DNA of 36,134 nt from an uncultured Clostridia bacterium (GCA_947624455.1 CANQKL010000002.1:1-36134); one strand, 5' to 3'; positions 9,263 to 27,035 are shown, counted from the first letter of the stretch. Translations and numbers: made by a program. Notes: generated by a model from the letters alone, not told the origin.

Positions 9263-9277
9263 GATTTTATATCCTCC

Positions 9278-9631
9278 TTAAAATCTGTTGTCGAGAGCGT
9301 CCCGGCGACCGGCCTTGTTCCAGGCTTCGCCGTCCAGCTTTTTATAAGACCGCACCTGAATGGACGAGGTTCCGGCGCCAATGGCGGCGGCAACGGCGGC
9401 GGTTATGACCGCTATCAGCTCAAGGCTGTCCTCCTCGGGTTCGGGCGCGGCTTCAACGGGAGCCGCGGGAGCGGGTTCCTGAGGCGTTTTCTCAGCGGAA
9501 AACAGGGCCATGGCCTTAATAACGAACATTATGATTATCAGGATAAGGAACACTATACATATTCCCATGATTGTGTAGGCAATACCCTCGCCGATCAGCT
9601 CGGCGGGTTCAAAATCTACGTATCTCGTCAT
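9278..9631 (-). CDS. OadG-family small membrane subunit (decarboxylase gamma/delta)
   Basis: ATG 9631 lies 6 nt after GAGGTG; the track start 9640 is a GTG inside the RBS. One TM helix (IAYTIMGICIVFLILIIIMFVI), an Ala/Pro linker and the conserved tail AVITAAVAAAIG...IQVRSYKK. Confidence 0.75.
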   Translation of the reverse strand: MTRYVDFEPAELIGEGIAYTIMGICIVFLILIIIMFVIKAMALFSAEKTPQEPAPAAPVEAAPEPEEDSLELIAVITAAVAAAIGAGTSSIQVRSYKKLDGEAWNKAGRRDALDNRF

Positions 9632-9643
9632 ACCGCTCACCTC

Positions 9644-12658: not shown

Positions 12659-12692
12659 TAAAAAAATAAAAAGAGAACCGCCGAAACGGTTC
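12659..12692 (-). terminator. Rho-independent terminator at the end of the 14-kb operon
   Basis: GAACCG (12675-12680) / CGGTTC (12687-12692). On the minus strand it is followed by CTCTTTTTATTTTTTT (plus-strand A-run 12659-12672). Confidence 0.5.
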
Positions 12693-12726
12693 CCTTTTTC
12701 ATTGTTTTTAATTCGAGCTGTCAACA

Positions 12727-12789
12727 GCTCAAGCGCCGCGCAATGCGGCTCAAGCGGCACGCAATTAGGCTCAAGCGCCGCGCTTGTTA
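12727..12789. repeat. three tandem 21-bp direct repeats overlapping the stop codon of 12787..13830
   Basis: GCTCAAGCGCCGCGCAATGCG (12727-12747), GCTCAAGCGGCACGCAATTAG (12748-12768), GCTCAAGCGCCGCGCTTGTTA (12769-12789). GCTCAAGCG recurs with an exact period of 21. Copy 3 contains the palindrome CAAGCGC-c-GCGCTTG. A GAGCTG-tcaa-CAGCTC palindrome lies at 12715-12730. Confidence 0.85.
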
Positions 12790-13830
12790 GCCAACCAGAC
12801 CGGACTGCTCCATGTTCTCAACCAGGCTCCTCTGTACGCAGAAGTATACGATAAGTAGGGGAACCAGGAAGATGAGTACCGCCGCCTGCTTGACCGCGTC
12901 AAAGGCAAAGCCGGATGCCGCGGGCTTGTCGAACCAGGTCTGCACCGCCGTAACAACGGTGTCGGACTGAGACGCGGCAAACCTCTGGGACAGCTTAACC
13001 GCCGCGAAGGGGCCTTCCGGATAGAAGTAACCGGTGTAATAGGTGTCGCCGTAGTTCCACACGAAGGACAGTATAGCCACCGTCATTATAGTGGGAGTGG
13101 CGTTGGGCAGAGCGATCCTGAAATACGTCTTGTAGAAGCCGCAGCCGTCGATAAGGGCGGCCTCCTCCAGTTCCTTGGGCAGGCCCATAAAGAACTGACG
13201 GAACAGGTAAATGAACATACTCTGCTTAAGACCAAAGCCGAACAGCGACAGAAGATACAGCGTGACGGGCTTGTTGATAAGGTCGATCGGGCCGCCGGTA
13301 AGGGCCGTAAAGATTCCAAAGATGTCAAAATTCTTGAAGCGCAGGTACTGGGAAATCAGCAGCGCCTGATCGGGAACCACGAAGGTGACGATTATCAAGA
13401 AGAATATCAATGTGCCTCCGGGAACCTTGATCCTGCCCAGAACATAACCGGCCATAGCGCTGATGAACACCTGGATAACAGCGATACTGGCGGCGTAGAG
13501 CAACGACCAGAGGATAATGGAGAAATTGCCGTAAACCAACCGGATGGCGGCCTTAAAGCTCACCAGCGAAAAAGTCTTGGGTACCCATACGATATCGGGG
13601 TTGCCCAGGTCCTCAACATCGTTGAGTACCATGGGGAACAGCTTTATGATGGGATAGAGGATGGTGAAGCACATTCCTATGATAAGAGATACCGCAAAGA
13701 TCTTGAAAACCAGATTCTGGAGGTAACGGGTCCTGTGCAGGGGATCGGTGATGGAGTTATCGTTCCACTTTTCCTTGAGCCATGCGCCGAAGCCGGGGCC
13801 CTTGACTTTATTTTTAGTCTTACTTGCCAT
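12787..13830 (-). CDS. carbohydrate ABC transporter permease (MalG/CUT1 type), pair 2
   Basis: Polytopic membrane protein. EAA loop LEEAALIDGCGFYKTYFRIALPNATP. The start overlaps the upstream permease gene by 11 nt. Confidence 0.9.
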   Translation of the reverse strand: MASKTKNKVKGPGFGAWLKEKWNDNSITDPLHRTRYLQNLVFKIFAVSLIIGMCFTILYPIIKLFPMVLNDVEDLGNPDIVWVPKTFSLVSFKAAIRLVYGNFSIILWSLLYAASIAVIQVFISAMAGYVLGRIKVPGGTLIFFLIIVTFVVPDQALLISQYLRFKNFDIFGIFTALTGGPIDLINKPVTLYLLSLFGFGLKQSMFIYLFRQFFMGLPKELEEAALIDGCGFYKTYFRIALPNATPTIMTVAILSFVWNYGDTYYTGYFYPEGPFAAVKLSQRFAASQSDTVVTAVQTWFDKPAASGFAFDAVKQAAVLIFLVPLLIVYFCVQRSLVENMEQSGLVG

Positions 13831-14764
13831 AATCTAATTTCACCACCTTTGTCAGAATTAAAACCAGGATCACCAGGGCTATCAGCACGTTCAGCAGGAA
13901 GCATACCGACAGGGCGCTTCCGACGCCGATCTTGTTGCTCTGGAAAGCGAAAGCGTATATCTCCTGAGACATCTTGGAGGCCAGGAACAGGTCTACCAAT
14001 GTGTACACGAAGATAAACAGCGTCGTGTTGCCAACCATTGGGAAGGTGATCTTCCAGAAGGTTTCATAGGTCGTGCAGCCCTCGATCTTGGCAACCTCAT
14101 AAAGAGAGGGGTTGATGGACTGGAGGGCGGCAAGGTACATCAGCGTTTGAACGCCGGCCTTGGAAACGATACCGAAGATATCGCTGATGACTCCCACGAT
14201 GAAGGAGATCACACTCTCGGGCAGGAAGCCTACCCGCGTGAACAGGCTCATCAGGAAGCCGGATTCCTCCGTGGCCGTGGTCGCCACCGCCGTAACGTCT
14301 CCGCCGGTGGACACGGTGATAAGATCCGTTACGATCGTAAGACCGAGTACTATCGGCAGGAAGAAGATTACGCGGACCACGCCCCGCCCCTTGTACTTCG
14401 CGTTGACAAGCAGCGCGCAGAACAAGCTGAATATAACGATCAACGGGGTGTTGAGCAGAACGTTAGAGTTCTCGTCGGTGAAAACCCGGATGAACTGCTG
14501 AGACTGGGTGGAAACCTCGGTGTTGAACAGGTCAAAGTAGTTATTGGTGCCTACAAACTCCATGGCCATACCGCCGGTGTCGCCAACCTCAACCTTGTTA
14601 AAGGAATAGATGACCGTATTTATAATCGGGATCATAAAGAACAAGAGGAAACCTATGATCCACGGCGCCAGGAAAACGTAACCGTTTATCTTCTGAGTGG
14701 TGGCGAAGGTAAGTGGCTTTCTTGTCTTTTTGGGTTTATTTTCCACATTCGCTTCTTGTTTCAT
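13820..14764 (-). CDS. sugar ABC transporter permease (MalF/CUT1 type), pair 2
   Basis: Polytopic membrane protein. EAA loop LYEVAKIEGCTTYETFWKITFPMV. ATG 14764 overlaps the upstream stop (TAATG). Confidence 0.9.
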   Translation of the reverse strand: MKQEANVENKPKKTRKPLTFATTQKINGYVFLAPWIIGFLLFFMIPIINTVIYSFNKVEVGDTGGMAMEFVGTNNYFDLFNTEVSTQSQQFIRVFTDENSNVLLNTPLIVIFSLFCALLVNAKYKGRGVVRVIFFLPIVLGLTIVTDLITVSTGGDVTAVATTATEESGFLMSLFTRVGFLPESVISFIVGVISDIFGIVSKAGVQTLMYLAALQSINPSLYEVAKIEGCTTYETFWKITFPMVGNTTLFIFVYTLVDLFLASKMSQEIYAFAFQSNKIGVGSALSVCFLLNVLIALVILVLILTKVVKLDYGK

Positions 14765-17667
14765 TACTTATCCCCTCCTTCCTTAATGACATAGCTCTGG
14801 GCTCCGAGAGTCTCGCCATTGACAGTCACGCTGAAGGTGTTGTAGTTAGTTATCACCTTAACGCCCGTCTCATAGGTGGTCTCGAAAACCTTGTCGTCCA
14901 GCACGCGGTGAGATATGATCCTCGTGGTGCCGATCTTGGCAAACTCATCCTTGATGGTCTGGTCCATTTCCTTTATCTCATCGGCAAAGAGCTTATACTC
15001 TGTGGCAAAGAGCTCGTTGTAGTTGTTCTGCTTAAGCTCGGCCACACCCTTAGCGGTTATGGTGAACTTGGGGAACGCGGCAAGCTCCATCGCCTGAAGC
15101 AGGAAGTAAGCCTTGTTGGAGGACGCGGTATTTATGCTGAGCGTGGTGTAATCGGTAAGTCCGTTGAGTACCAACTGACGGAAGGGAACGTTCTCCTTGA
15201 TAAGACCGTAATCGCTGCTCTCCCTGGAAACGTCCGCCGCTATGGCCGCATAGCCTATGCGGTTGGCGTTGGGATTGTAGAGTACGAGCTTTCTGTCCTG
15301 AGACAGGGTCTGGAGGGCGTTCTGGATAACCTGCTCGCCCTGATAAGGCGTACACTGTTTGCCGTCGCGCTGATCCTCATAGTACAGGCTGCCCAGATCC
15401 TCAAGGCTGAGGTTCTTGTACTCAGCGGCCGCCGAGGAGAACTTATTAACAACATTGGGAAGATATCTGGGAGATACGGTGTAATAGCCGTTGCCGTGCA
15501 TATTGAACTCGCCGGTGGGGATGTCGTAATCGTAAGTCACAAGGGGTTCGCCGTTAAAGTTCACAAGAGAATGTTTCGTCTTAAAGGAGGACGAGGTCTT
15601 GTAAACCTGAGTGGGATTCACGTTGAGATAAAGGCTATCCCAATGATCCCTGAGCAGGGCGTCCAGATCGGACTTGCTGCCGTTGCTGGAGGTGAGCTTC
15701 GCGGAGGAATTTACTTTGTTGTAAATGCCGCCGTTGAAAGCGCCCTTGTAGCTTACTATGGGATTGACCGCCTTGAGATCCTCGTAGATCTCGGCCAGCT
15801 CCTTGTAAGTGGTCATGGACACCGTCCTGTCATAAGGAACGCCCATGATTCGAGCGTCTATAGTCAGAGAGGATATAACGTCCAGGAATACTCTGGGAGC
15901 GGTCATTTCCTCGGCTGTCTTTTCCTTAAGATTATAGGCCGAAATTATGTAATCCCGGTAGGACTGGCTCATGGTGTAGTAATTGGCGTTGTCAGTGTAA
16001 AGCTTGTAACGCACGCGGCAATCCATGTTGAATTGGTCGGTCATGGCGATAAAGCGAGCGTCGTTGTCGCTGTAGGGGCCAAACACCTTAACGCTGCTGA
16101 GCTGCATTAAGTCAAAGGAGGGATAAACCTTGTTGAAGGGAGCGTCCGCCGCAACGTCGCCGGTAGCGGCCAGCTTAACGTTGATGGAGGCGGTGGGATC
16201 GCCGCTCTCGATTATGCCCATGAAGCCGTTGTAAGGCTTTACTACAGGCTCCTCGACGATCTCGGTGGCCTCGGCTTCCTCACCCTCGGCGGCTTCACCC
16301 TCGGCGGCTTCACCTTCGGCGGGTTCCTCCGCGGGTTCTTCGGCAGGCTCCTCAGCAGGCTCCTCTGCCTCGGCGGCTTCTTCGCCTTCAGCAGGCTCTT
16401 CGCCCTCTGCGGCCTCCTCACCCTCGGCAGCCTCCTCGCCTTCGGCGGCTTCGCCTTCGGCAGGCTCCTCGGGCTTCTCTGTCTCGACTATCCTGTCAGC
16501 GTCGCTGCCCATGCCAAAGACGGGCATCGTGATATTCTCACGGAACTCGCTCTGATTGTAGAGCTGATCGTAATAGGTGTTGTTGTAAACGGGACGGGAG
16601 TACTCGGCATAACCGCTGTCGTAGCTGTTGATGTCGAAGATAGCGCCGCTGCCGTCGGGAACAAAGATGAATCCGTTGTCTGTCTCATCGGACTTTATCA
16701 GGCCGAAGTTGGGCAGGATCTGGATGGCCTTGAGCTGGTACTCCTTCTCGTGCTGCTCATTTTCCTGGCTCTCATTCACGATCTTGTCGGTGGGGATATT
16801 GACCACAAGGTCGCCGTCGTCAAGGGTGAACTCCACAGGAATAATAAAGCGGGGATTCTCGGTTACATTAAAGGTAAAGTCGAACTCCTGGCTGTCGATA
16901 CGGATCTCGTCAACAGTGTAGTTTACCTTTTTGCTCAGGTCGATAAGGATTCTGGTGGCGGATACGGGAGGCGTGCCGGCCAGCTTGTTGTAGTAATGGG
17001 TCCCGTCATCGGAAAGAGCGTAGATCTTATCAAGGGCGTTATCGTAGCTGGCCTGAGTCTCAGCTGTAATAGTGCCATTATCGACGAGCTGCTGTACCTT
17101 GTCCTTGAAGAACTCGTTAAAGCGCTCGACGCTCACCATCTTGGGCATATATTCCTCCAGATTGGTGGACTCCTCGCTGGCGAAGGTCATATTGGCCCTG
17201 AAGCCATTGGGGATGCGCTCGATGGTGTACTTCTTCTCAACTTCCTCGCCGGTGAGGGACTCGCCCTCGTCCTCGACGCAGTAGCTGTAACCGCTCCAGG
17301 TCTTTTCGGCGCCCGCGCCGTCAATATAGGTTATTGAAATGGGGCCGCCGGGAGTGGAGCTGGATTCCTCGGTGTTGCTGACGGACTCCCAATATGTATT
17401 GGTGGCCGTGTCAACAACTCTGATGTCCAGTGTGACGGGGTTGACCATCAACTGCTTGCCGCCGTTCTCCGCGACTGTCGTCCAGCCATCGGAAGTGGTG
17501 TCGACCGTGTTGAGCGATGGCGTCAGATCGCCGGAGCTTATTGGGGGAAGGGCGGTGGCCTTCATCCCAAGCTGAGGCAGCCATGATACGAACTGAACTA
17601 CCAAGAATATTACCAAGGCAATGCAGAGTATTTTCAGCACGCTTAAATTCTTTAAAAAGTTTTTCAT
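14764..17667 (-). CDS. large N-terminally membrane-anchored extracytoplasmic protein, DUF5696-like (function unknown)
   Basis: ATG 17667 lies 9 nt after GAGGTGGTG; the track start 17679 is a GTG inside the RBS. One N-terminal TM helix (ILCIALVIFLVVQFVSWL). The remaining ~940 aa are soluble-looking, with a ~70-aa Glu/Ala/Pro low-complexity insertion. The family call rests on my recollection of DUF5696 proteins next to Yip1 and sugar-permease genes and needs an HMM check. Confidence 0.65.
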   Translation of the reverse strand: MKNFLKNLSVLKILCIALVIFLVVQFVSWLPQLGMKATALPPISSGDLTPSLNTVDTTSDGWTTVAENGGKQLMVNPVTLDIRVVDTATNTYWESVSNTEESSSTPGGPISITYIDGAGAEKTWSGYSYCVEDEGESLTGEEVEKKYTIERIPNGFRANMTFASEESTNLEEYMPKMVSVERFNEFFKDKVQQLVDNGTITAETQASYDNALDKIYALSDDGTHYYNKLAGTPPVSATRILIDLSKKVNYTVDEIRIDSQEFDFTFNVTENPRFIIPVEFTLDDGDLVVNIPTDKIVNESQENEQHEKEYQLKAIQILPNFGLIKSDETDNGFIFVPDGSGAIFDINSYDSGYAEYSRPVYNNTYYDQLYNQSEFRENITMPVFGMGSDADRIVETEKPEEPAEGEAAEGEEAAEGEEAAEGEEPAEGEEAAEAEEPAEEPAEEPAEEPAEGEAAEGEAAEGEEAEATEIVEEPVVKPYNGFMGIIESGDPTASINVKLAATGDVAADAPFNKVYPSFDLMQLSSVKVFGPYSDNDARFIAMTDQFNMDCRVRYKLYTDNANYYTMSQSYRDYIISAYNLKEKTAEEMTAPRVFLDVISSLTIDARIMGVPYDRTVSMTTYKELAEIYEDLKAVNPIVSYKGAFNGGIYNKVNSSAKLTSSNGSKSDLDALLRDHWDSLYLNVNPTQVYKTSSSFKTKHSLVNFNGEPLVTYDYDIPTGEFNMHGNGYYTVSPRYLPNVVNKFSSAAAEYKNLSLEDLGSLYYEDQRDGKQCTPYQGEQVIQNALQTLSQDRKLVLYNPNANRIGYAAIAADVSRESSDYGLIKENVPFRQLVLNGLTDYTTLSINTASSNKAYFLLQAMELAAFPKFTITAKGVAELKQNNYNELFATEYKLFADEIKEMDQTIKDEFAKIGTTRIISHRVLDDKVFETTYETGVKVITNYNTFSVTVNGETLGAQSYVIKEGGDK
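16262..16478 (-). repeat. degenerate 12-18-nt tandem repeats encoding an acidic (P/A)AEGE(E/A) tract inside 14764..17667
   Basis: Protein tract EKPEEPAEGEAAEGEEAAEGEEAAEGEEPAEGEEAAEAEEPAEEPAEEPAEEPAEGEAAEGEAAEGEEAEATE. The DNA shows reiterated GGCTTCACCCTCGGC / AGGCTCCTC units. Confidence 0.85.
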
Positions 17668-17672
17668 ATCAA

Positions 17673-18302
17673 TCACCACCTCTTCATAAATTCAGTCACG
17701 AAGGTGTAACCGAAGGATACCGCCTTCTGTATAAGCGTAATGTACAGTATGGCCAGGAATATTATTATTATTGCCGCGACAAAGGTAGCGACGATCATGG
17801 CAACGTTCGTTCCGGCGGTATACTCGTGAGCCACGCACAGGCCGGCGAATACCAGGAAAGCGAAGAATACGCTGCCCGCGACGCTGATGGCCGAAAGAAT
17901 GGCGGCCTCCTCAGCGGTTACCACATTACTGAAAAGTACGACTACCGCGTCCAGAACCAGCTTCGGAAACAGAGCGTAGGTCAGCACCGTGTAGATGTCG
18001 CTGAACTTACCGCTGCCCTCAAATATGGCCGTAACGCTCCAGTTGCTTATGCAGAAGAGCAGGAACGGGAATATGCCAAAGATGAACGTCGTGACGCTGT
18101 TCATGGCGAACAGGGGATTGTCGTTCATTATAAAGCCGGTGTACTGATACTTTACTATGGCCAGCAGACCGTAGAGTATCAAAATTATCGTACCCAGGGC
18201 CAGATTACCCTTGCCTCTGAAGCGCACCTCATAGAAGCCATCAAATGGATGGAAAATGACGTACGTCAGATATTTGAAATCTTCTAATAACTTTTTCATC
18301 AT
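17673..18302 (-). CDS. Yip1-domain-like polytopic membrane protein
   Basis: ATG 18302 (or 18299) follows GAGGTG; the track start 18308 is a GTG inside the RBS. N-terminal FHPFDGFYEVRF box followed by five predicted TM helices, as in bacterial Yip1/DUF1282-type proteins. Confidence 0.65.
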   Translation of the reverse strand: MMKKLLEDFKYLTYVIFHPFDGFYEVRFRGKGNLALGTIILILYGLLAIVKYQYTGFIMNDNPLFAMNSVTTFIFGIFPFLLFCISNWSVTAIFEGSGKFSDIYTVLTYALFPKLVLDAVVVLFSNVVTAEEAAILSAISVAGSVFFAFLVFAGLCVAHEYTAGTNVAMIVATFVAAIIIIFLAILYITLIQKAVSFGYTFVTEFMKRW

Positions 18303-18312
18303 TTTCACCTCA

Positions 18313-19800
18313 TTATAACTCTTCTAACTTCTTCTGCTTCCGGCTGTAGGCTATCTCTGTCCAGAGTACCCAAGTCACGAAGGCAAGGAACACGATGGCG
18401 AAAATCCAGAAATACTTCTGAATGAGCAGGTTGCGGTAACCGCCAAAGGCCGTGGAGTAATAGGTCTTGTCGTTACCGAGCCTGAAATTGTCCATAGCGG
18501 CCTTGTAGTTGTCCCGCATGAGCTGGTTCTTGCCGATGGATACGTAGGCGTGGTCATAGTTGGCGTTCATGTCTACTATCTGCTGGTTCTTAACGGCCGC
18601 TCCGTCGAAGTCGCCGTTGAAGTACATTTCCTCCGCGTCAAGCACCAGCGCGCCGAAGTCGGTGGGGTTGAACACGAAAGCGCTGGCCAGCTTGCTGTCG
18701 CCCACTATAAGGGAGTTGCCCATCCAGCAGATGGAGGACGGAGTGTTGAACTTGCCCTTTGTGTCGCCCTTGCCGCCAAAAACGGTCAGCAGGTTGCCGT
18801 CAAAGTTATAGAGGAACACTCTGTTCTTGGAGGTATCCAGCAGGGCGTAAACGCCGTAGTCGGAAACCGCCACATCCGCAAAGGTACTCTTGGAGCTGTC
18901 GGTGGCGCTTGTGGGCAGGTCGCCCAAAATTTTGCTATAACCAAACTTACGCAGCACGTTTTCGCCCTTAGCGTTGAAACGGAAAGCCATTTCCTCAGAG
19001 GCCGTATCGGTGGTTACCGCGTATACGAAGCCGTCGGAGTCAGTCTCAACGTTAGTGAAGGCGGGAGCGTAAACCTTGCTCATCTTTGCCTTCTGTTCGT
19101 CAGAGGCGATGGATTTCCAGAAGAAATCAATCAGGTTTACCGTGGGAGAGTTAACGCCGAAGTAGCGGGAGAAGCTGCCGTCGGTGTTAAGCTCGATGAT
19201 ACCCTCGGTGCTGTTCTTTACCACAACGAAGATTCTGTCCGCGTTGTCGACAGCCACCTTGGAGGGGATGAACTCGGTGGAACCTACCATGTTATCGGGC
19301 TTGTTGATAACCATAGACATGGGGTAGGAGTTTTCGCCGGTCTCGTCAACAGCGTTAATATCCAACACAAAGATACGGTTGTTGCCAGTGTCGGCGATGT
19401 AGAGGTTACGGTCGTTGGCAAACACGCCCTCGGGAGCGTTAAGGATAGCCTGCTTGTTGCTGTCCTCGTCAACGACGATCTTGCCCTCGGTGTCGCGTAT
19501 AATCTTTATCTGCTTTACCAGATTAAAGTTCGTATCCAGCACATCTACCGCATTGGAGGCCGCATCGGCAATGTAGATCTTGTCGCCGTGAACGTACACG
19601 TCGTCAACGCTGCCCAAGGTCAAGCCCTCGACGCTGTCGCTGTTGATAACGGTAGAAAGCTCAAAGGCGTTCAAGCTCTGGTTGGCGCTGGACCAATAGT
19701 CGTAAATGTAGCTGCTGTCGTCGGTATGCTCGGCATAAGCGGTTGCAAATGTGAAGCATAAAAGTACCAGCGTAATAAGGCTTATAATTCTTTTCGTCAT
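18313..19800 (-). CDS. NHL-repeat beta-propeller protein with signal peptide and C-terminal TM anchor
   Basis: ATG 19800 lies 7 nt after GGGGGTG. Signal peptide IISLITLVLLCFTFATAYA. NHL-type blades (VYVHGDKIYIADAASNAVDVLD; PEGVFANDRNLYIADTGNNRIFVLD; PSKVAVDNADRIFVV; PSSICWMGNSLIVGDSKLASAFVF). C-terminal TM helix YFWIFAIVFLAFVTWVLW followed by a basic tail. Confidence 0.75.
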   Translation of the reverse strand: MTKRIISLITLVLLCFTFATAYAEHTDDSSYIYDYWSSANQSLNAFELSTVINSDSVEGLTLGSVDDVYVHGDKIYIADAASNAVDVLDTNFNLVKQIKIIRDTEGKIVVDEDSNKQAILNAPEGVFANDRNLYIADTGNNRIFVLDINAVDETGENSYPMSMVINKPDNMVGSTEFIPSKVAVDNADRIFVVVKNSTEGIIELNTDGSFSRYFGVNSPTVNLIDFFWKSIASDEQKAKMSKVYAPAFTNVETDSDGFVYAVTTDTASEEMAFRFNAKGENVLRKFGYSKILGDLPTSATDSSKSTFADVAVSDYGVYALLDTSKNRVFLYNFDGNLLTVFGGKGDTKGKFNTPSSICWMGNSLIVGDSKLASAFVFNPTDFGALVLDAEEMYFNGDFDGAAVKNQQIVDMNANYDHAYVSIGKNQLMRDNYKAAMDNFRLGNDKTYYSTAFGGYRNLLIQKYFWIFAIVFLAFVTWVLWTEIAYSRKQKKLEEL

Positions 19801-19814
19801 CACTGTGCACCCCC

Positions 19815-20705
19815 TTAATCTTTCATACCGGAGCTGGCCATCGTCTCGATAACGTTACTCTGGGAGAATACGAATACCGCGATAGGAACTGCCAGCATGA
19901 TCAGGTTTACCGCCGACGACACACCTGTACGCACGATACCGGCGCTGATGATCTGGCTCAGAGCGTAGGTGATGGGCTTCAACTTTTCGGTATAGATGAA
20001 GTTACCGCCGGTGGCGCCCCACAGGGACTGGAAGGAAAGGATGATGGCCGTGATCCAGGCGGGCTTCGCCAGCGGCATTACTACCTTCCAATATATTCCG
20101 AATTCGCTGGAGCCGTCGATCTTGGCGGACTCGAGAAGCGAGGTTGGAATGTGAACCATGTTGTTCTTCATCAGGTACAGGCACAGGGTCGAGCCTATGG
20201 CCGGAATAACTACCGCCCAATATGTATCTACAAGGTGAAGCTTGCTCATGATAATATAGTTGGGGATAGCGGTTACGGTGCCGTTGAACATCAGAGAGTA
20301 GGTGATGATGCTGCTCATGGCGCCGCTGCCCGGGAACTTGTACTTAGCCAGGGGATAAGCGGCCATGGAGCCGAAAACTACCGTACCGGCCGTGCCCAGG
20401 AAGGTGATGAAGAAGGTGTTGAAGATGTACCGGCTGAATGGTACCCAGCTGTTGCCCACTATCTGGAACAGGTCGCGGAAGTTGTCGAGGGTGGGGTTGG
20501 ATACGTAAAACCGGGGCGGGAACAGGAATATCTCGTTCAAAGGCTTGAAAGCGTTGATTATAATGAGCCAAAGGGGCAGTATCGAGAACAGGCCGAAAGC
20601 CCCCAGGAACACCGTCAGCGCAATGTCCACGCCGAGAGAACGGTTCCGGCGGGTTATTTTGCGATGATCAAGGTATTGCTTAAACTTCTTGATAGGATTG
20701 ATCAT
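19815..20705 (-). CDS. carbohydrate ABC transporter permease (MalG/CUT1 type), pair 1
   Basis: EAA loop LLESAKIDGSSEFGIYWKVVMPLAKP; six predicted TM segments; 3-nt gap to the upstream gene. Confidence 0.9.
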   Translation of the reverse strand: MINPIKKFKQYLDHRKITRRNRSLGVDIALTVFLGAFGLFSILPLWLIIINAFKPLNEIFLFPPRFYVSNPTLDNFRDLFQIVGNSWVPFSRYIFNTFFITFLGTAGTVVFGSMAAYPLAKYKFPGSGAMSSIITYSLMFNGTVTAIPNYIIMSKLHLVDTYWAVVIPAIGSTLCLYLMKNNMVHIPTSLLESAKIDGSSEFGIYWKVVMPLAKPAWITAIILSFQSLWGATGGNFIYTEKLKPITYALSQIISAGIVRTGVSSAVNLIMLAVPIAVFVFSQSNVIETMASSGMKD

Positions 20706-20708
20706 GCT

Positions 20709-21656
20709 TTATTCACCCACCCTTCTCAAAATCTTTTGAACTACGATGTTAGCGAAAATCATTATGAAGAACAGCACGGTAGCTATCGCGGACGCGTAAC
20801 CCATTTCGTAACGGGTGCTGCCGTAGTCGTTCAAGTGGGTCAAAATCGTATGACCCGCATAGTCCACCGACGGGAAGCCCGCCAGCTCTGTAGAAATGTT
20901 GGAAACGGAAAGCGAAGACGTGATCTGCATTACCGCGCCGAACATCAGCTGAGGCTTCATGGCGGGCAGGGTGATGTACCACAGCTCCTGCCAGCGGTTC
21001 TTGATACCGTCGATAGCGCCAGCCTCGTACATGGTCTTGTCAACGGACTGGAGTCCGGCGATGAACGACAGGAATGATACGCCCAAGCTCAGCCACAGCT
21101 GAACTATGATCAGTATGGGCATGATGTATTCCGCCGTTTCAAACCATAGTATGGGACTGTCGATTACCCCCATATTCAGCAGCCAGGCGTTGGCGTAACC
21201 GTACATATCGGAGCTGAATATCAGCTTCCAGATAACGAAAGCGTTACCGGAAATGGACGGCGCGTAGAACACCAGTGTCAGGAACGCGCGGGGCAGCGGG
21301 GGCAGTTCGTTGATGAGCCAGGCGAAAACGAAGCACATCAAGTAACTGATAGGACCTGTAACCAGGGCGAAGAGCATAGTGTTCTTCATGGCTATCAGGA
21401 ATATGTCGTCGAATACGATAAGGTTTATGTAGTTATCAAGCGCTACGAAATCAGGAGTTTGCAGCATATTGAAGTTCGTAAAGCTCATAACTATGGAAAC
21501 CAGTACCGGGATAGCGGTGAAGCATATGAAGATAATGGCAAACGGAAGTATCATCAGGTATTTTTCCTTATGAAGTTTCCAGGCGTTTGACCACTTCATA
21601 GCCTCGAGCTTTTTCTTTTTTGGCTTGTCGGCGGCGGGCGCTTGCGCCTTACTCAT
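20709..21656 (-). CDS. sugar ABC transporter permease (MalF/CUT1 type), pair 1
   Basis: EAA loop MYEAGAIDGIKNRWQELWYITLPAMKP. ATG 21656 overlaps the upstream gene end by 8 nt. Confidence 0.9.
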   Translation of the reverse strand: MSKAQAPAADKPKKKKLEAMKWSNAWKLHKEKYLMILPFAIIFICFTAIPVLVSIVMSFTNFNMLQTPDFVALDNYINLIVFDDIFLIAMKNTMLFALVTGPISYLMCFVFAWLINELPPLPRAFLTLVFYAPSISGNAFVIWKLIFSSDMYGYANAWLLNMGVIDSPILWFETAEYIMPILIIVQLWLSLGVSFLSFIAGLQSVDKTMYEAGAIDGIKNRWQELWYITLPAMKPQLMFGAVMQITSSLSVSNISTELAGFPSVDYAGHTILTHLNDYGSTRYEMGYASAIATVLFFIMIFANIVVQKILRRVGE

Positions 21657-24171
21657 TTACCTCACTCCCTTCCTCATAATATGTGCCATCCTCGATGTAG
21701 GAAAGGTCAAATTCCTTTCTCTTCTTTGTGAGCTCATCGTTGATATCCTTAACATTAAGGTAGAGAGCCTCACGGGGATTCTGACCGTCGGTAACTACGT
21801 TCTTATAAGCCATGTCAACCATACGGGTCGTCATGTAGTATCCGGGAACATCGGGAATACCTACTGTGTTATCGAACTGATCCAACAGTGTGTCGGCCTG
21901 GGTCGCGGACCAGGGAAGGCTGCGCAGAACGTTCTTGTTAGCAGTAGCGTAACGGGCGCCGCTGCCCATGATAGCCTCGATGGTCGTGGCAAAGCTGGCC
22001 TGGACGTCGTCGGACAGCCACCACTTCATGAAGTTCCAGCCGTCGTCGTAACGGTCGCTGCTCTCAAGGATGGTGGTGTGTACCGAGGTGGCAACAGCGG
22101 TATTGTTGATGTTGCCGTTCTCGTCCTGGAAACCGGGCAGGGGAGCGAAGCTCCACAGACCCTTGATCTCGGGAGCGAATACCTCCAGAGTATTGTAGGT
22201 GGTGTAGTCTGCTATGCCAATGGGTATCTCGCCGGTACGGAAACGGTTGGAGAAGTCGGCGGATACGGGCAGGTCATAAGCGGTGAAGAATTCGCACAGA
22301 CGCTTGAAGGCGATCATGGCTTCCTCATCTCTTAAGCCGGACTCTATGCCGTAGTCAGTGGATTTGCCCACGGCCTGAACGTCGGAGGCGTCCTTGACGG
22401 GATCGCCGTCTCTGTCGTAATAAGTCTCGCCCTCGCTGCCGTGGTAGAGGTCGCCGCCGTTCTGATAAACCATGGTGTTTATCATAAGGCTGGAGGGCAT
22501 ATAGAAGTCATAGTTGTTGATGTGGAGGTCGGATATCATCTCGCCCACCTCGTCCCAGGTCTTGGGAACGGAAAGGCCCAGCTCGTTGAGGATATCCTCA
22601 CGGTAGAACATCATGCTGAAGTTCTCAGTCTCGGGGAGGCCGTAAACTCCGCCGTGATAGGTGACGGTCTGGAGCGCGCTGTTGTAGAAACGGCTGGCCT
22701 GCTCCTCAAAGTCGGGGAACTGAGTGAGGTCGTGCAAAGCTCCTCTGTAAGCGAAGTTCATGATATTGGACTGACCCATGTTCAGCGCCACGTCGGGGCC
22801 GTTGCCCGCCAAGGTAGCGGGAAGGATAACGGACGCGGGAATGAGCTGAAGGTTTACCGGTATGCCGTTGTTGGGAGCGAAATCGCTGTCTATAAGGTTC
22901 TTGATGACGTTAGACTGGTCGCGGCCGGTCTGGGTCCAAACCTTAAGAGCGCCCTTGTTGTTGCCGGAGTCGTCCAGCTGAGTCTCGTCAACAAAGAAGG
23001 TGGCGAAGAAGCGGATAGCCTCGTGGAAAGCGGCCTTAAGACCGTTAGGCTCGGCGTTCTTAAGCTTCGCGCCAGGAGCGCTGAGGGTGAGGCTGTCGAT
23101 CTCAAGAGGCATCTCGGAAATCGTCAGCATCCAGGTGGACAGGGCGGAGATGTTGCTCTTGAAATCGCTTATTTCCTTAACTACTCTTTCGGGGTCCTCG
23201 GCAAAGCGCTCGGCCTGCTGAGCAACCTTTTCCAGATTAGTGGTGTTGGAGCCTTTTTCTCCGGTTATCTCTACCATCTCGTCAACAATGGCGTTCAGGT
23301 TCTTAGCCTGCTGGCGCATGGTAGACTTGAAGCCGTCGATCTTGTCCTCGATCTCGTAGTCGATATGAGCGTCGGGAACGGTACCGGTGATCTTAACTAT
23401 TCTCAGATAGAAGTTGTTAAGATCCTGCACGCTCTGGCTGATCTTGGTGTAAGCGTTGGCAAAGTCGCCCAGGCATACGTCAAGACCGATGGTGTTCTCA
23501 CCGGCGTTCAGATAGAAAAGAGCGGGTTCCTTGTCATTGGACACAACGTAGTTCTGGAAGGAGCCGGAGAAGTCGAAGCCGACCTTCTTAGCCTCCTCAA
23601 AGGGAACCACGCCGTTGATGGTCAGGCGGCGGTAGCTCTTTACGCCGCGGTTGGTAGCCTGACGTCCGCGGAAGGTAAGCTGATAATAACCGGCCTCGGG
23701 AACGTTCACTACCCACTTGACGCTGTCGCCGGGAGTCTGCCAGCTTGTGCCGCCCATGGTGTTCAGCAGAACGTTCCAGTGGTGGTAAGGTACCGTGTAG
23801 GAGCTGGAATAGTCAGAGGACATACCGATGGAGGGAGAAGACTTGATTATCTTCGTCACCACGTCGTCGGTACGCTCGGCCTGACCGGTCAGATTTTCAC
23901 CGGCGTAAGAGGGGCCGGGGTTCTTGGCCAGATATTCCTCGTATGTAGGCGGCTCCTCAGCCTGGCAAAGGGTGATGCCCGCTATCTTGACAGGCTCCTT
24001 GGCCTCGACCAGCGTCAGCGTGTGCGGGCCGGCGCTGAAATAGAAGGCGTAAGGCTCAAGGGAGCGGTAGTTCTCATCGGAATAGAAGAACTCGTAGTCG
24101 TCGGGATCATATATCTCAATTGGCGATCTCGCCGTCGTTATTGAGCCAGGCTCTCTGGAAAGAGATCTGCT
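21649..24171 (-). CDS. C-terminal part of a frameshift-split giant SBP: end of CBM-like module 1, CBM-like module 2, helical linker, family-1 extracellular solute-binding domain
   Basis: The frame is open up to 24171, but the only in-frame start is GTG 23862, which has no RBS. The stretch upstream of that GTG reads as good protein (EIYDPDDYEFFYSDENYRSLEPYAFYFSAGPHTLTLVEAKEP...). CBM-like module GDSVKWVVNVPEAGYYQLTFRG..RRLTINGVVPF..PALFYLNAGENTIGLDV. SBP core GALKVWTQTGRDQSNVIKNLIDSDF... Confidence 0.7.
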   Translation of the reverse strand, partial: SRSLSREPGSITTARSPIEIYDPDDYEFFYSDENYRSLEPYAFYFSAGPHTLTLVEAKEPVKIAGITLCQAEEPPTYEEYLAKNPGPSYAGENLTGQAERTDDVVTKIIKSSPSIGMSSDYSSSYTVPYHHWNVLLNTMGGTSWQTPGDSVKWVVNVPEAGYYQLTFRGRQATNRGVKSYRRLTINGVVPFEEAKKVGFDFSGSFQNYVVSNDKEPALFYLNAGENTIGLDVCLGDFANAYTKISQSVQDLNNFYLRIVKITGTVPDAHIDYEIEDKIDGFKSTMRQQAKNLNAIVDEMVEITGEKGSNTTNLEKVAQQAERFAEDPERVVKEISDFKSNISALSTWMLTISEMPLEIDSLTLSAPGAKLKNAEPNGLKAAFHEAIRFFATFFVDETQLDDSGNNKGALKVWTQTGRDQSNVIKNLIDSDFAPNNGIPVNLQLIPASVILPATLAGNGPDVALNMGQSNIMNFAYRGALHDLTQFPDFEEQASRFYNSALQTVTYHGGVYGLPETENFSMMFYREDILNELGLSVPKTWDEVGEMISDLHINNYDFYMPSSLMINTMVYQNGGDLYHGSEGETYYDRDGDPVKDASDVQAVGKSTDYGIESGLRDEEAMIAFKRLCEFFTAYDLPVSADFSNRFRTGEIPIGIADYTTYNTLEVFAPEIKGLWSFAPLPGFQDENGNINNTAVATSVHTTILESSDRYDDGWNFMKWWLSDDVQASFATTIEAIMGSGARYATANKNVLRSLPWSATQADTLLDQFDNTVGIPDVPGYYMTTRMVDMAYKNVVTDGQNPREALYLNVKDINDELTKKRKEFDLSYIEDGTYYEEGSEVNE

Positions 24172-24601
24172 TCATACCGTCGAACAATGTCTCGCCGTCG
24201 ATCTGTACGCTTCTCTGAGGAGTGGCGTTTGTGCCCTCCAGGGAGTAGTACTTAAACTTGATGTTGTAAAAACCGGCCTGGGCAACATCAAAATTCCAGG
24301 TGATGTCGCCGCGTTCGCCGATGGTCACGCCCTGGGAATCCAGCGCCGCGCCAGCTTCGGGATCCGCCGTAAAGTTCGCTATGTCAACCTCGACAGGGGT
24401 CGCGGGGCCGGCCTTTGACGAGTCATAGTTGTGGTCCTCGAGATAGGACTGATACGATTCGTCCATAAACCGACCGGACACGCCAAAGTTGGCCACAGTG
24501 TCCTTTGAACCGGGGAGCACGAATGCAAGGAGCACCAGGAGCGCGATGACCGCAATGATAACGCCTACAACGATAAGGCGCTTTTTGGTTTTTGCCTCCA
24601 T
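24116..24601 (-). CDS. N-terminal part of the same split gene: TM anchor plus first two thirds of CBM-like module 1
   Basis: ATG 24601 lies 9 nt after GGAGGG. TM anchor LIVVGVIIAVIALLVLLAFVL. Module start GDITWNFDVAQAGFYNIKFKYY..RSVQIDGETLFDGMKQISFQRAW. Stop TGA at 24116-24118 falls in the middle of the module. Confidence 0.7.
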   Translation of the reverse strand: MEAKTKKRLIVVGVIIAVIALLVLLAFVLPGSKDTVANFGVSGRFMDESYQSYLEDHNYDSSKAGPATPVEVDIANFTADPEAGAALDSQGVTIGERGDITWNFDVAQAGFYNIKFKYYSLEGTNATPQRSVQIDGETLFDGMKQISFQRAWLNNDGEIAN

Positions 24602-24621
24602 GTTTTAAATCCCTCCGTTCA

Positions 24622-26760
24622 TTATTCTACCGTAAGTTCCGTTGCCACTCTTGTTACGTTGTGAGCGAAGTCTTCCACATAGATCTCGACCGGGTAAGTT
24701 CCGGGAACGGTAACGTCCAGGTCGGTCACAACGGCGGAAACTCTCGACTTGAGGTTAATGCCGTTGACATCCTCCGCTGTCTCGACGCAGTTGTCGCCCC
24801 AGTTGTAGCTGGAGGTGTCGGTGCCGACGCCGATCTTGGGAAGTTCTTCCTTGAGTACCAGAGTGGGAGGCTCAGTGCTTTGATCGTCGTATACAAAGGC
24901 CTCGAACTTTTGCTCGTTTTTATTTCCGGCATAGTCGGTAGTGGTAACTACTATACCGTCGGTATACTGGCCGGGGGTGTTGAAGTCAACGCCGGAATAA
25001 TCCACGGTCATCTTACCGTCGAGCCACTCCTCCTGGGGGATGGGTTCGCCGTCGTCGTCGACCGCGCCCTCGTCCACGTGCTTTCTGAGCTGGATCTTCG
25101 AGCCGTCCATCTGGATGTCGTAATCGCCGTCAACATTGTCGTTGGCCTTGATCCGATCAGCCCAATTTATGTCGGCGGGGTTTGTATCACGCTCAAAAAT
25201 GAAGGAGTTATTTTCCTTAGAGCTGGCGGAGGGGGCGATATCGTCCACAACCTCGCCCTTTCTGAGGGCCTTAGACATATTGTCCAGCTTCTCGTACACG
25301 GTATTCTTATTGGCCTCCACGGCGGTAGCGTACTTGGGCATTCCCCCAAAGCCGTAGATGGACTTGCCCGCGATATCGGTCCAGGTCCAGAACACGCCGA
25401 TAGCCTCGGAATAGTCGTTTACCTTAGTGCGGCCCATAAGCTCAAATATCTTCAGAATATCGTCGCCGGTCTCGGGGTGGAGGATATCCACGCCGAAGGA
25501 CAGGGCCTCGGGTCCGGCCTGCCTTTCCATATACTCGTCTATGCTGTCCACGCCGCCGTAAGCCTTGTAGTACTCGCTCTTATAGGTGGCGTAAGCCTCC
25601 AGGGCCAGCTTGCTGCGCTCGGCGTCGTGTCCCTTCATCAGGCCCACGCTGTCGGCCGCCGCGCTGAGTATCCGGTACTGGGAGGAGTTATTCATTATTT
25701 CCTCGTCAGTGGGAGCGGGAACATTGTCAGGACGGGGGAAGGGGATGATGCCCATGCTCTCGCCCCGGCCAGCCAAAGCGCTGCCCGCGTTATCCATCTG
25801 CCAGCGGGCCACGTTGGTGAACACCGTCTCGCCGTTGCAGAAAGCGTCCGTCTCGGTAAGCCAGCCGGAGTCGATAGAGGTATCGCTTACAGTGGAGCAG
25901 GAGATAAGACCGGAGTTTATCATTCTGTCCATATACTCGATAGCCGTCTTAGCCTCGGCGGTATCAAAGCTCATGTTCGCGCCGTCGTAAACGGCCTGAC
26001 CGTTGGAAGCGATGGCCATAAGCACCGCGTAGCTGTAGTTCGTATTGAAGGGAACGATGTCGTTGGAAGAATTGACAGGCCCCTTTTTGCCGTTGTAATA
26101 GGCTTTTATCTTGGCGAGGTAATCCTCGAACCTGCTCCAGGTCCACTCTCCGCGCAGATACAGGTCGGAGGGATAAACCGTCCGTCCGTTCTCTTTAAGG
26201 GCGGGGACAGCCTCTATGTAATCAATATTGTAGCAAATTGGCCATGTGTTCACAAACAGCAGGTCACGGTTCATCAGGTAATAGCTGCCGAATGTCTTTC
26301 CTATGGGAATCCAGGCCTTATCCGCATCGTCCTCACCGAAGAAAACATCGTCAACATACGGATCCAGAGGCTGGAGTATGTTCTGGTTCATAATGTTTCC
26401 CTGGACGCCGTTCCACAGAACGGCCAGGTCGCAGTAGGGATCGCCCGCCAGCACCGTCTGAAGCAGAAGCTGCTGAAGGTCGCTGGAATACTGGGACCAG
26501 GTGATCTCAACGTTGAGCTTATCCTTCACGATGGAAAGGGCTTTTTCAGCCGCCCGAAGATAATCCGGGTTCATCGTGGACTCGCCGGTGATCTCATCCA
26601 CCCAGTTGGGGTCGTCCTCCTGCTGAGCGTGAGTGCCAATGACGATGGTGGTCAACGCATTGGCTCCACCCTGACCGGTGGGTTTACAACCCGCAAGGGA
26701 GACCGCCGCCAAAGCGACCGCGGACGTTACGGCAAGCAAAGCTTTTAACCTTACGCGCAT
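24622..26760 (-). CDS. extracellular solute-binding lipoprotein (family 1) with a C-terminal tandem Ig-like extension
   Basis: ATG 26760 follows AAGGATGTGG; the track start 26838 lies inside the promoter region. Lipobox AVSLAGC. SBP core of ~500 aa. The C-terminal ~190 aa shows two Ig-like motifs of the type VDxxxPGxYxVxY.......GN (VDFNTPGQYTDGIVVTTTDYAGN and LDVTVPGTYPVEIYVEDFAHN). Confidence 0.85.
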   Translation of the reverse strand: MRVRLKALLAVTSAVALAAVSLAGCKPTGQGGANALTTIVIGTHAQQEDDPNWVDEITGESTMNPDYLRAAEKALSIVKDKLNVEITWSQYSSDLQQLLLQTVLAGDPYCDLAVLWNGVQGNIMNQNILQPLDPYVDDVFFGEDDADKAWIPIGKTFGSYYLMNRDLLFVNTWPICYNIDYIEAVPALKENGRTVYPSDLYLRGEWTWSRFEDYLAKIKAYYNGKKGPVNSSNDIVPFNTNYSYAVLMAIASNGQAVYDGANMSFDTAEAKTAIEYMDRMINSGLISCSTVSDTSIDSGWLTETDAFCNGETVFTNVARWQMDNAGSALAGRGESMGIIPFPRPDNVPAPTDEEIMNNSSQYRILSAAADSVGLMKGHDAERSKLALEAYATYKSEYYKAYGGVDSIDEYMERQAGPEALSFGVDILHPETGDDILKIFELMGRTKVNDYSEAIGVFWTWTDIAGKSIYGFGGMPKYATAVEANKNTVYEKLDNMSKALRKGEVVDDIAPSASSKENNSFIFERDTNPADINWADRIKANDNVDGDYDIQMDGSKIQLRKHVDEGAVDDDGEPIPQEEWLDGKMTVDYSGVDFNTPGQYTDGIVVTTTDYAGNKNEQKFEAFVYDDQSTEPPTLVLKEELPKIGVGTDTSSYNWGDNCVETAEDVNGINLKSRVSAVVTDLDVTVPGTYPVEIYVEDFAHNVTRVATELTVE

Positions 26761-26809
26761 TTTTTCCACATCCTTTTTTAGTAATTTTGCACACTGCTTG
26801 CATACTACT

Positions 26810-26838
26810 ATTATACACAAAAACTCTAAAAACTGCAA
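26810..26838 (-). promoter_or_regulatory. sigma-70-type promoter candidate for the 14-kb operon
   Basis: On the minus strand: TTGCAG (26838-26833), 17-nt spacer, TATAAT (26815-26810). Phased A/T tracts lie immediately upstream (26839-26890), UP-element-like. Confidence 0.5.
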
Positions 26839-26884: not shown

Positions 26885-26923
26885 AAAATAAAAATGGGCT
26901 GAAAACATAATGTTTCTTGCCCA
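26885..26923 (-). terminator. Rho-independent terminator candidate of pheST (bidirectional shape)
   Basis: ATGGGC (26894-26899) ... GCCCAT (26918-26923) with an inner GAAAACAT/ATGTTTC pairing. Flanked by an A-run (26885-26893) and a T-run (26924-26929). Confidence 0.5.
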
Positions 26924-27035
26924 TTTTTTATTGTAATTTATTAACAAAAGCAGGATTCGTTAAAATCTCACAAATTTCGACGGCTCCGGTCATAAATTTC
27001 CGACACCGCGCGGCGCCGGAGCCGAACCGCCTGTG

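Follow-up and report, generated by a model that had tools for sequence, protein, structure and literature searches.

A candidate two-module sugar-uptake cassette that joins ABC permeases to DUF5696, NHL and Yip1 proteins in an uncultured Clostridia bacterium

What can three accessory proteins, an NHL beta-propeller, a polytopic Yip1-family protein and a large surface protein of the DUF5696 family, be doing between two pairs of sugar-importer permeases? The question is raised by nine genes, present as ten open reading frame (ORF) pieces, that run in the same direction on the minus strand from 26760 to 12787 in a 36,134-nt stretch of DNA from an uncultured Clostridia bacterium (GCA_947624455.1 CANQKL010000002.1:1-36134), the whole of which is called the window below. 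The reading that we favour, with about an even chance of being right, is a sugar-uptake cassette of two modules, the second of which would be an ATP-binding cassette (ABC) importer with dedicated accessory subunits, with the ATPase supplied in trans. Judged from sequence comparison, the cassette appears to be a self-contained and widely distributed variant of the Gram-positive sugar-uptake locus, undescribed as a combination. Its genes are listed here in their order, SBP standing for solute-binding protein, Perm for permease and CBM for carbohydrate-binding module.

24622..26760, minus strand: SBP1, lipoprotein of 712 aa with lipobox LAGC and a divergent solute-binding fold; Pfam SBP_bac_1 at 25 bits, just below the cut-off
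24116..24601, minus strand: SBP2, N-terminal fragment, a transmembrane anchor and a first CBM35-like beta-sandwich, ending at a premature TGA
21649..24117, minus strand: SBP2, C-terminal part in another frame, a second CBM35-like module, a helical spacer and SBP_bac_8; first in-frame start codon at 23862
20709..21656, minus strand: PermA1, MalF/UgpA-like permease of module I; Pfam BPD_transp_1, NCBIfam UgpA and PotB matches
19815..20705, minus strand: PermB1, MalG/UgpE-like permease of module I; BPD_transp_1 E 3e-9, NCBIfam UgpE E 9e-20, EAA loop conserved
18313..19800, minus strand: NHL protein with signal peptide, six-bladed propeller, TPR-like helices and C-terminal transmembrane helix; Pfam NHL at 27.6 bits against a cut-off of 20
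17673..18302, minus strand: Yip1-family membrane protein with about five transmembrane helices; Pfam Yip1 PF04893 E 4.8e-13, 49.8 bits against a cut-off of 28.6
14764..17667, minus strand: DUF5696 protein, 967 aa, with an N-terminal transmembrane anchor; Pfam PF18952 E 9.2e-126, 421 bits against a cut-off of 25.6
13820..14764, minus strand: PermA2, divergent MalF/UgpA-like permease of module II; Pfam 16.5 bits, below the cut-off, NCBIfam UgpA E 2e-12
12787..13830, minus strand: PermB2, MalG/UgpE-like permease of module II; BPD_transp_1 E 4.5e-11, conserved EAA loop EEAALIDG

An earlier note on this DNA, made from the sequence alone, had given the ORF positions and the junctions between them, and both are reproduced exactly in our ORF table: along the gene order the genes are first separated by 20 nt, next overlap by 8 nt and then lie 3, 14, 10 and 5 nt apart, after which the start of PermA2 overlaps the stop of DUF5696 by one base (TAATG) and PermB2 overlaps PermA2 by 11 nt. 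Pfam confirms the gene types that it had assigned, with SBP_bac_1 (weak), SBP_bac_8, four times BPD_transp_1, NHL, Yip1 and DUF5696. Its prediction that all non-permease products are tethered on the outer face of the membrane agrees with hydropathy and with the helices of the AlphaFold2 (AF2) models, namely the LAGC lipobox, the transmembrane anchors and a signal peptide.

Synteny was followed in a scan with one genome per species, in which at least 555 loci with a DUF5696 relative were found and 79 were fetched. The nine window proteins were mapped onto these loci by phmmer, and 51 of them contain enough sequence to be evaluated. As evidenced by this mapping, the cassette is present in the same order and orientation in 51/51 loci; 37 have all nine genes, 12 carry an ordinary SBP of ~450 aa in the SBP1 slot, and in two NHL and Yip1 form one ORF. 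The order is also kept around five far-off DUF5696 proteins with 21-27% identity (5/5). The hosts comprise Oscillospiraceae, Lachnospiraceae, Paenibacillus, Cohnella, Lederbergia, Tissierellaceae and Treponema, that is, Clostridia, Bacilli and Treponema from two phyla. Throughout the loci examined DUF5696 lies in an eight- or nine-gene cassette, in every case with NHL/Yip1 upstream and PermA2/PermB2 downstream, and over all loci the gap has a median of 1 nt for DUF5696-PermA2, -11 nt for PermA2-PermB2 and -4 nt for NHL-Yip1. An order shared by 51/51 related loci is an arrangement far beyond chance. The neighbourhood of Yip1, DUF5696 and sugar permeases that the earlier note mentioned for other Firmicutes is real and much stronger than stated there, as it is family-wide, extends across phyla and includes fusions of NHL with Yip1. 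A literature search on DUF5696/PF18952, and on Yip1 together with NHL, permease or glycoside hydrolase, returned no relevant paper.

Three loci reveal how the cassette is built. Locus L058 reads SBP-LamG-NHL~Yip1-DUF5696-PermA2-PermB2 and contains nothing of what we call module I; L055 reads NHL~Yip1-DUF5696-PermA2-PermB2 with no SBP2, PermA1 or PermB1 downstream, its contig starting 258 nt before the NHL gene; and in L073 the two parts are swapped, so that an SBP, NHL~Yip1, DUF5696, PermA2 and PermB2 are followed by SBP2, PermA1 and PermB1. From these arrangements we assign SBP2 with PermA1/PermB1 to module I, and SBP1 or its substitute with NHL, Yip1, DUF5696 and PermA2/PermB2 to module II. 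The integrated machine proposed in the earlier note is supported in part, by tight coupling, conserved order and the NHL-Yip1 fusions, but the cassette is a composite of two modules and not an undivided whole.

The four permeases all match BPD_transp_1, two of them with scores under the curated cut-off, and combine this fold with the EAA coupling loop that marks CUT1 membrane subunits. The loop is retained across 65-71 orthologues per permease, as YEAGAIDG...ITLP in 65 orthologues of PermA1 and as YEVAKIEG in 71 orthologues of PermA2. The two pairs are paralogous, with 22.5% identity between PermA2 and PermA1 and 25% between PermB2 and PermB1. Because the EAA loop, the dock of the ATPase, is kept in all four proteins, they should need an ATPase supplied in trans. 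No ABC_tran ATPase domain was found in the Pfam-scanned ORFs of the 36-kb window, and no MalK-type ATPase lies next to the cassette in the flanks of the 79 related loci, which fits such a supply. The absence of an ATPase and of a regulator from the locus, stated in the earlier note, was found with Pfam and NCBIfam alike. DrrA-type ABC ATPases located 2-5 kb off in 14 loci were not taken as the missing subunit, as they belong to another transporter class. Note that on contig P0078 a single 588-aa BPD_transp_1 product takes the place of PermA1/PermB1, perhaps as the two fused together.

The two solute-binding proteins differ in how readily they are recognised. SBP1, with its weak match of 25 bits, has no match among PDB sequences; a homologue in locus L007 ends in a C-terminal Bact_surface_Ig-like domain (E 2.9e-10). 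It is present in 37/51 evaluable loci, the ordinary ~450-aa SBP taking its place in a distant clade. A cognate binding protein of the SBP_bac_1/8 type is provided by SBP2 (SBP_bac_8, E 7e-15), for which the nearest solved structure, searched with the orthologue from locus L004, is Lin1841 (E 1e-23). Its CBM_35 match is weak (E 2e-4), the two CBM35-like modules are internal repeats of one another, and hydropathy places the N-terminal transmembrane helix at residues 3-37. The description of SBP2 in the earlier note, with two CBM-like modules and a transmembrane anchor, holds for the domains, but this copy of the gene is frameshifted by a net 32-nt deletion relative to L004, at the following site.

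24117..24119, minus strand: SBP2 disruption site; by DNA and protein comparison with L004, one T, at about 24118, stands in place of 33 nt that code for RNGNEIRPNAT there, which shifts the frame by a net -32 nt

L004 encodes an intact SBP2 of 994 aa, with which the N-terminal fragment shares 89% identity over residues 1-161 of the L004 protein and the C-terminal part 92% over residues 173-994; the C-terminal part is left without a membrane anchor. The deletion lies between two GAGAT(C/A) repeats, and the split, at 24116-24119, would be either a real and perhaps strain-specific inactivation, with SBP2 a pseudogene here, or an assembly error; the contig of the closest relative, L089, does not span the site. 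As a consequence of the frameshift, module I is probably impaired in this genome and the present copy of the cassette may be partly defective.

Of the accessory proteins, NHL and Yip1 are considered together. The AF2 model of NHL (predicted local distance difference test score, pLDDT, 84.7) consists of a six-bladed propeller, TPR-like helices at residues 381-441 and a long transmembrane helix at 464-494, and its top Foldseek matches are the NHL domains of Thin, TRIM71 and TRIM2 (E 3e-15, template modelling (TM) score 0.8). The earlier note had counted this protein among uncharacterised catalytic or handling components; what emerges is a generic six-bladed propeller with TPR-like helices and no enzyme-like match ahead of binding modules. 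An enzymatic reading, as PAL or a streptogramin-lyase-like protein, was rejected, as such matches rank below the generic NHL binding domains. Yip1 shows about five hydrophobic segments by hydropathy, and its gene either follows the NHL gene directly, at the negative median gap given above, or is fused to it. A single NHL-Yip1 protein of 685-746 aa is encoded in L055 (259-2385), L066 (7917-9974), L068 (7443-9560), L073 (6979-9168), P0199, L081, L087 and L088. Fusion in several lineages indicates that the two proteins act as one unit and argues for a physically integrated one, and the topology fits, since the C-terminal helix of NHL would lead into a cytoplasmic N-terminus of Yip1. The one bacterial Yip1 protein with a described role that a literature search returned is YknW, which as an accessory subunit modulates how the ABC exporter YknXYZ is assembled (PMC4887032). 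As YknW is the known Yip1 partner of YknXYZ, we also record a single occurrence in a Ruminococcus metagenome-assembled genome, in which genes for a YknX-like membrane-fusion protein and for an FtsX-type permease of 981 aa directly follow the cassette (L080:15155-19204), with ABC ATPases upstream.

The largest accessory protein, DUF5696, belongs to a family of 3,908 clusters at 50% identity (family profile, E<=1e-30). Its AF2 model, built with 61 sequences, has a pLDDT of 85.2 and a predicted TM score of 0.83 and is composed of an N-terminal transmembrane helix, a beta-sandwich with an inserted helical subdomain, an acidic linker, a (beta/alpha)8 barrel and a C-terminal beta-sandwich. The acidic stretch is the one feature within the gene that was listed separately.

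16265..16485, minus strand: acidic low-complexity insert in an N-domain loop of DUF5696 (residues ~395-470, ~75 aa), with PAEGE/AAEGE repeats (direct repeats D1-D3)

The model assigns a pLDDT <50 to residues 407-468 of this insert, indicating disorder; it varies among close homologues and is absent from glycoside hydrolase family 129 (GH129) in the profile alignment. A single-sequence search of DUF5696 against PDB sequences returned nothing, and kinship to GH129 is revealed only by the family profile and by the predicted fold. With Foldseek the best match in the PDB is DagB (ZGAL_3152; 5opq/8rzk; E 4e-26, target TM score 0.67), a GH129-like 3,6-anhydro-D-galactosidase, followed by the GH129 enzyme NagBb (5wzn; ~1e-18, 0.70) and GH101 (~1e-13), with GH36 and GH31 lower down; the target TM scores for GH129, GH129-like and GH101 proteins range from 0.67 to 0.72. 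The family profile retrieves DagB from the PDB by sequence (E 3e-7, collinear), and hhalign against DagB-like and GH129-like sequences from a metagenome scan gives 98.0% in local mode (E 2e-13) and 99.4% in global mode over 646 columns. A homologue search with a 65-aa fragment of ZgGH129 returned nothing, and a profile of the barrel alone gave spurious matches to pentatricopeptide-repeat proteins in the PDB that were discarded. Taken together, the Foldseek, profile and hhalign matches make DUF5696, with its three-domain architecture and detectable homology, a remote member of the GH129/GH101 glycosidase superfamily.

This membership raises the question whether the protein is an enzyme. In DagB the residues Asp486, Glu517, Glu531 and Asp202 are all required for activity, and Asp486 is the counterpart of the NagBb nucleophile Asp435 (Ficko-Blean et al., PMC5698469). 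In all six hhalign runs, with three profiles and two settings each, D486 of DagB is paired with S760 of the present DUF5696 protein (posterior ~0.7), and this column holds N31/S11/T8 among 61 sequences and is acidic in only 3/61. The non-catalytic D483 of DagB aligns with D757 in the same six runs, and a separate alignment with NagBb places D435 at 760/761 and E478 at N798. The remaining catalytic residues of DagB fall on Y797/N798 (E517), A811 (E531) and R358 (D202), at a low alignment confidence of 0.2-0.5, and within the limits of this low-confidence alignment no conserved carboxylate lies within one residue of the aligned positions in the acid/base region. By these alignments the nucleophile Asp after strand beta4 is not found in DUF5696. 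The surroundings of the site are nevertheless conserved. Residues D/E596, Y640, N645, D757, N798-P799, S817-S818, N846 and E861 are kept at the C-terminal ends of the barrel strands, and the most conserved motif of the family, from FVPDGSG through N347, Y356, R358, Y361 and E377 to P382 (N-domain stretch 338-385), aligns with the active-site-lining segment of DagB, residues 179-228, which contributes Cys198, Asp202, Lys208 and Asn218 to the active site (PMC5698469). The pocket therefore looks functional by conservation, while DUF5696 would fail as a canonical retaining GH129/GH101 enzyme; it would be a pseudo-enzyme that binds glycans, or else an enzyme whose catalytic centre has moved, and its ectodomain is probably a non-canonical or inactive GH129-like domain. 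The earlier note had seen no hydrolase and only uncharacterised families in the locus, which holds in part and needs correction in view of the remote homology of DUF5696 to GH129, GH129-like and GH101 proteins. As the catalytic carboxylates of these enzymes appear to be missing, the kinship does not already explain the locus. The Foldseek comparison of predicted folds that it had proposed thus leads from DUF5696 to GH129/GH101, and from NHL to generic NHL domains.

Clues to the substrate come from the genes that adjoin the cassette elsewhere. A total of 401 flanking ORFs were clustered and scanned with Pfam, and about half of the loci have catabolic carbohydrate-active enzymes (CAZymes) with LacI or AraC regulators beside the cassette. 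In 30 loci the gene of a GH30 lipoprotein follows directly downstream; a GH35 beta-galactosidase (23), LacI (22) and AraC/REC proteins (11) also recur, as do GH36-like (7), GH36 (6), GH2 (5) and GH10 (5) proteins, and GH1 was seen too. The loci with the minimal module have beta-helix and esterase genes as neighbours, and in the clade of the window itself the flanks vary from genome to genome. These neighbours support a catabolic, glycan-related role, and they hint at galactosides as a substrate class that would not be uniform across loci. The GH30 neighbour does not allow the substrate to be deduced, as the nearest solved structure, 3clw, is itself uncharacterised.

In the reading that we favour, module I would be a conventional CUT1-type importer made up of PermA1/PermB1 and the giant membrane-anchored SBP2, with its two CBM35-like modules on a helical stalk, and module II would be a second CUT1-type importer, in which PermA2/PermB2 are served by SBP1 as the binding protein and by the three accessory proteins. 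An ATPase of the MsmX/MsmK type would be supplied in trans to both permease pairs. DUF5696 would be a type-II-anchored ectodomain descended from alpha-glycosidases of the GH129/GH101 type that has kept its sugar-binding pocket; docked on PermA2/PermB2 as the glycan-engaging subunit, it would hold the substrate and hand it over, or cleave it by a non-canonical mechanism. The NHL-Yip1 unit may be the membrane scaffold on which DUF5696 is assembled, by analogy with the role of YknW for its ABC exporter, and the cargo may be an oligosaccharide from a galactose-containing glycan, as suggested by the GH30, GH35, GH36 and GH2 genes that adjoin the cassette in other genomes. In its strictest form, in which module II would represent a new class of ABC importer whose permeases work only in a supercomplex with a catalytically disabled DUF5696 and an NHL-TPR-Yip1 scaffold, the proposal is tentative and, in our view, rather doubtful.

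Several points weigh against this interpretation. The evidence that associates DUF5696 and NHL-Yip1 with PermA2/PermB2 consists of gene order, overlaps and fusions. The catalytic mapping is a profile alignment, whose confidence is ~0.7 for the nucleophile but low for the acid/base, and DUF5696 does retain conserved carboxylates, D338 in 60/61 sequences, E377 in 56/61, D757 in 43/61 (21/22 in the main clade) and E816 in 42/61, so that it could be enzymatically active, with its catalytic centre at another place. From clade to clade the neighbouring CAZymes vary (beta-helix proteins and esterases, GH10, GH1/GH2) and none is found in the window, so that the substrate may not be uniform. SBP2 is broken in this copy. 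As regards transcription, the single promoter stated in the earlier note is plausible to likely as a prediction, although a scan lists minus-strand promoter-like sites within the operon, for example at 22220-22192 and 20585-20557.

The alternative that survives best takes the locus for an ordinary Gram-positive polysaccharide utilisation locus (gpPUL), in which DUF5696 is an active surface hydrolase of a new glycoside hydrolase family near GH129/GH101 with a shifted dyad, such as D757/E816 or D338/E377; the enzyme would cut a polymer so that both importers take up the products, and NHL would merely be a binding module. We consider this possible but on the whole unlikely. The full three-domain glycosidase architecture, the high-confidence homology and the pocket residues kept at the ends of the barrel strands speak for an enzyme, but the nucleophile Asp, the sole catalytic residue common to GH129 and GH129-like proteins, corresponds to an Asn/Ser/Thr column in DUF5696. 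A relocated acid/base would have a precedent within the superfamily, where this residue already differs between NagBb and ZGAL_3152 (PMC5698469), and D757 together with E816 is present in 21/22 main-clade sequences, as is D338 in nearly the whole set; yet much of the distant clade, where the whole cassette is kept, has lost D757/E816. The large CBM-like and propeller modules suggest polymers, which would need cutting before ABC import, and no other candidate enzyme lies nearby in the window. On the other hand, a rigid gene order and a stop-start overlap with PermA2 across phyla would be unusual for a free-standing surface hydrolase. Note that by Pfam and NCBIfam no recognised CAZyme or regulator is present in the window, so that the locus as it stands here does not make a gpPUL.

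A second alternative assigns the cassette a non-nutritional role, in recycling or remodelling of the cell's own envelope or extracellular glycans (wall, capsule) or as a glycan sensor ('transceptor'), and we regard it as improbable. All non-permease products are tethered to the surface, as such a role would have it, but the permeases are of the importer type, with EAA loops and solute-binding proteins, and the Pfam scan found no signalling domain in the cassette proteins. Likewise, the lack of a regulator or recognised hydrolase inside the cassette, and flanks that are housekeeping or unrelated in this genome and its closest relatives, stand against the half or so of loci that adjoin catabolic CAZymes and LacI/AraC regulators. 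That two unrelated transporters and unrelated surface proteins merely share a location, with no functional integration, is very unlikely, for although the modules occur apart or in reverse order and promoter-like sites lie within the operon, the gene order persists in 51/51 and 5/5 distant loci of two phyla, several lineages have NHL fused to Yip1, there are overlaps of stop and start codons, and the flanking of DUF5696 by NHL/Yip1 and PermA2/PermB2 is without exception among the loci examined.

With the two-module uptake cassette as our favoured reading, the signals that delimit it in the window are as follows.

26890..26928, minus strand: hairpin and T-run, terminator of pheST; inverted repeat I11 with 19-nt arms, 84% complementary, followed by TTTTTATTTT
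26810..26838, minus strand: promoter-like site TTGCAG-17 nt-TATAAT, -10 matching 6/6 and -35 matching 3/6, preceded by an A/T-rich stretch; read directly
12668..12699, minus strand: intrinsic terminator after PermB2, a 14-pair stem followed by ATTTTTTT

The promoter-like site is missing from the list of the consensus scan because its -35 element matches in only 3/6 positions. The genes pheS/pheT form the operon directly upstream and end at 27036, and the hairpin at 26890..26928 is predicted to end the pheT transcription unit and to insulate the cassette from it. Within the operon terminator-like sites are not commoner than expected, with 15 sites compared to 16.9 in shuffled sequence. In the 3' untranslated stretch from the PermB2 stop to the terminator, positions 12737-12783 hold three tandem copies of a ~21-nt motif with the core GCGCTTGAGC. 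The GC content is 0.53 for the cassette and 0.58 for its flanks, and at third codon positions (GC3) 0.67-0.74 for the cassette and 0.69-0.80 for the flanking genes; a recent horizontal acquisition is not supported by composition, as the GC3 values overlap.

The remainder of the window carries pheST with a T-box leader (Rfam RF00230, 97 bits; 30535-30774, minus strand, upstream of pheS/pheT), a Bmp lipoprotein, and decarboxylase and carboxyltransferase genes. The last of these, encoding the alpha and beta subunits of a Na+-translocating decarboxylase and a carboxyltransferase, occupy 6188-11125 on the minus strand; a 705-aa ORF on the plus strand, 8567-10684, has no family match and is probably a spurious antisense ORF. 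Between 597 and 6069 two proteins with copper-amine-oxidase N-terminal (stalk-like) domains, one of them fused to ABC_sub_bind, flank an extracytoplasmic function (ECF) sigma factor and a downstream 294-aa protein with no Pfam match that may be an anti-sigma factor. At 33326-36073 on the minus strand lies a gene for a 915-aa protein with a weak SLH-domain match at the N-terminus only; its start is listed near the end of the window, and the ORF may extend further upstream.

If the accessory proteins are indeed transporter subunits, the view of how Gram-positive glycan capture is coupled to ABC import will need revision. A supercomplex of the strict form would be a bacterial counterpart of the SLC3/SLC7 design of heavy chain plus transporter, and would provide a first role for bacterial Yip1 proteins and for several thousand DUF5696 proteins. 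Should DUF5696 be active instead, it would establish a new family of glycoside hydrolases, one whose catalytic centre is unusual. The carriers of DUF5696 include abundant gut Clostridia (Lachnospiraceae, Oscillospiraceae) and soil Paenibacillus, and with cultured carriers at hand, Paenibacillus nanensis, an Anaerocolumna sp. and Niameybacter massiliensis, the question is directly testable.

The components of the cassette are of known kinds, CUT1 permeases and SBPs, the GH129/GH101 fold, an NHL propeller and Yip1; undescribed are their invariant combination, the apparent loss of the GH129 catalytic residues in DUF5696 and the NHL-Yip1 unit. The cassette resembles those CUT1 sugar importers of Firmicutes that share an orphan ATPase, MsmX in Bacillus subtilis and MsmK in streptococci, in its MalF/MalG-type pairs with EAA loops, its tethered SBPs and the lack of an ATPase gene in the locus. 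It differs from them in that two paralogous permease pairs (22-25% identical) reside in one operon, two of the permeases scoring under the Pfam cut-off, in that the SBPs are 712 and ~980 aa long with Ig-like and CBM-like additions and a transmembrane anchor, and in that three accessory membrane or surface proteins are always interposed. DUF5696 is collinear with GH129, DagB and GH101 from end to end and shares their architecture, in which a (beta/alpha)8 barrel lies between an N-terminal and a C-terminal beta-sandwich, but at an identity of about 10-18%; the N-terminal transmembrane anchor, the inserted helical subdomain and, in the clade of the window, the acidic linker are features of its own, and unlike these enzymes it invariably has the gene for Yip1 on one side and those for an ABC permease pair on the other.

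The YknWXYZ system of Bacillus likewise encodes a polytopic Yip1-family protein together with an ABC transporter, and this protein is needed for assembly of the complex (PMC4887032). YknYZ is, however, a MacB-type exporter with a membrane-fusion protein, whereas the partner in the cassette is an importer-type permease pair. Moreover, the Yip1 protein of the cassette, which is likened to YknW by family membership, has an extracellular NHL-TPR module as its partner or as part of the same chain. A further parallel is found in the heteromeric amino-acid transporters of eukaryotes, in which SLC3 heavy chains (4F2hc/rBAT) join SLC7 light chains. 4F2hc is a single-pass type II protein with an ectodomain that is related to the glycosidase fold but has no catalytic residues, and it is the obligate partner of a polytopic transporter. 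For DUF5696, whose proposed association follows from gene order, this is an analogy between different transporter classes and not a homology. The gpPULs of the Roseburia/Eubacterium type, finally, combine ABC importer genes with those of surface glycan-binding or processing proteins in a fluid composition. In many genomes the cassette approaches this pattern, as GH30, GH35, GH36 and GH2 genes and a LacI regulator abut it, but its core, unlike theirs, comprises no regulator and no recognised CAZyme and retains a fixed gene order across phyla.

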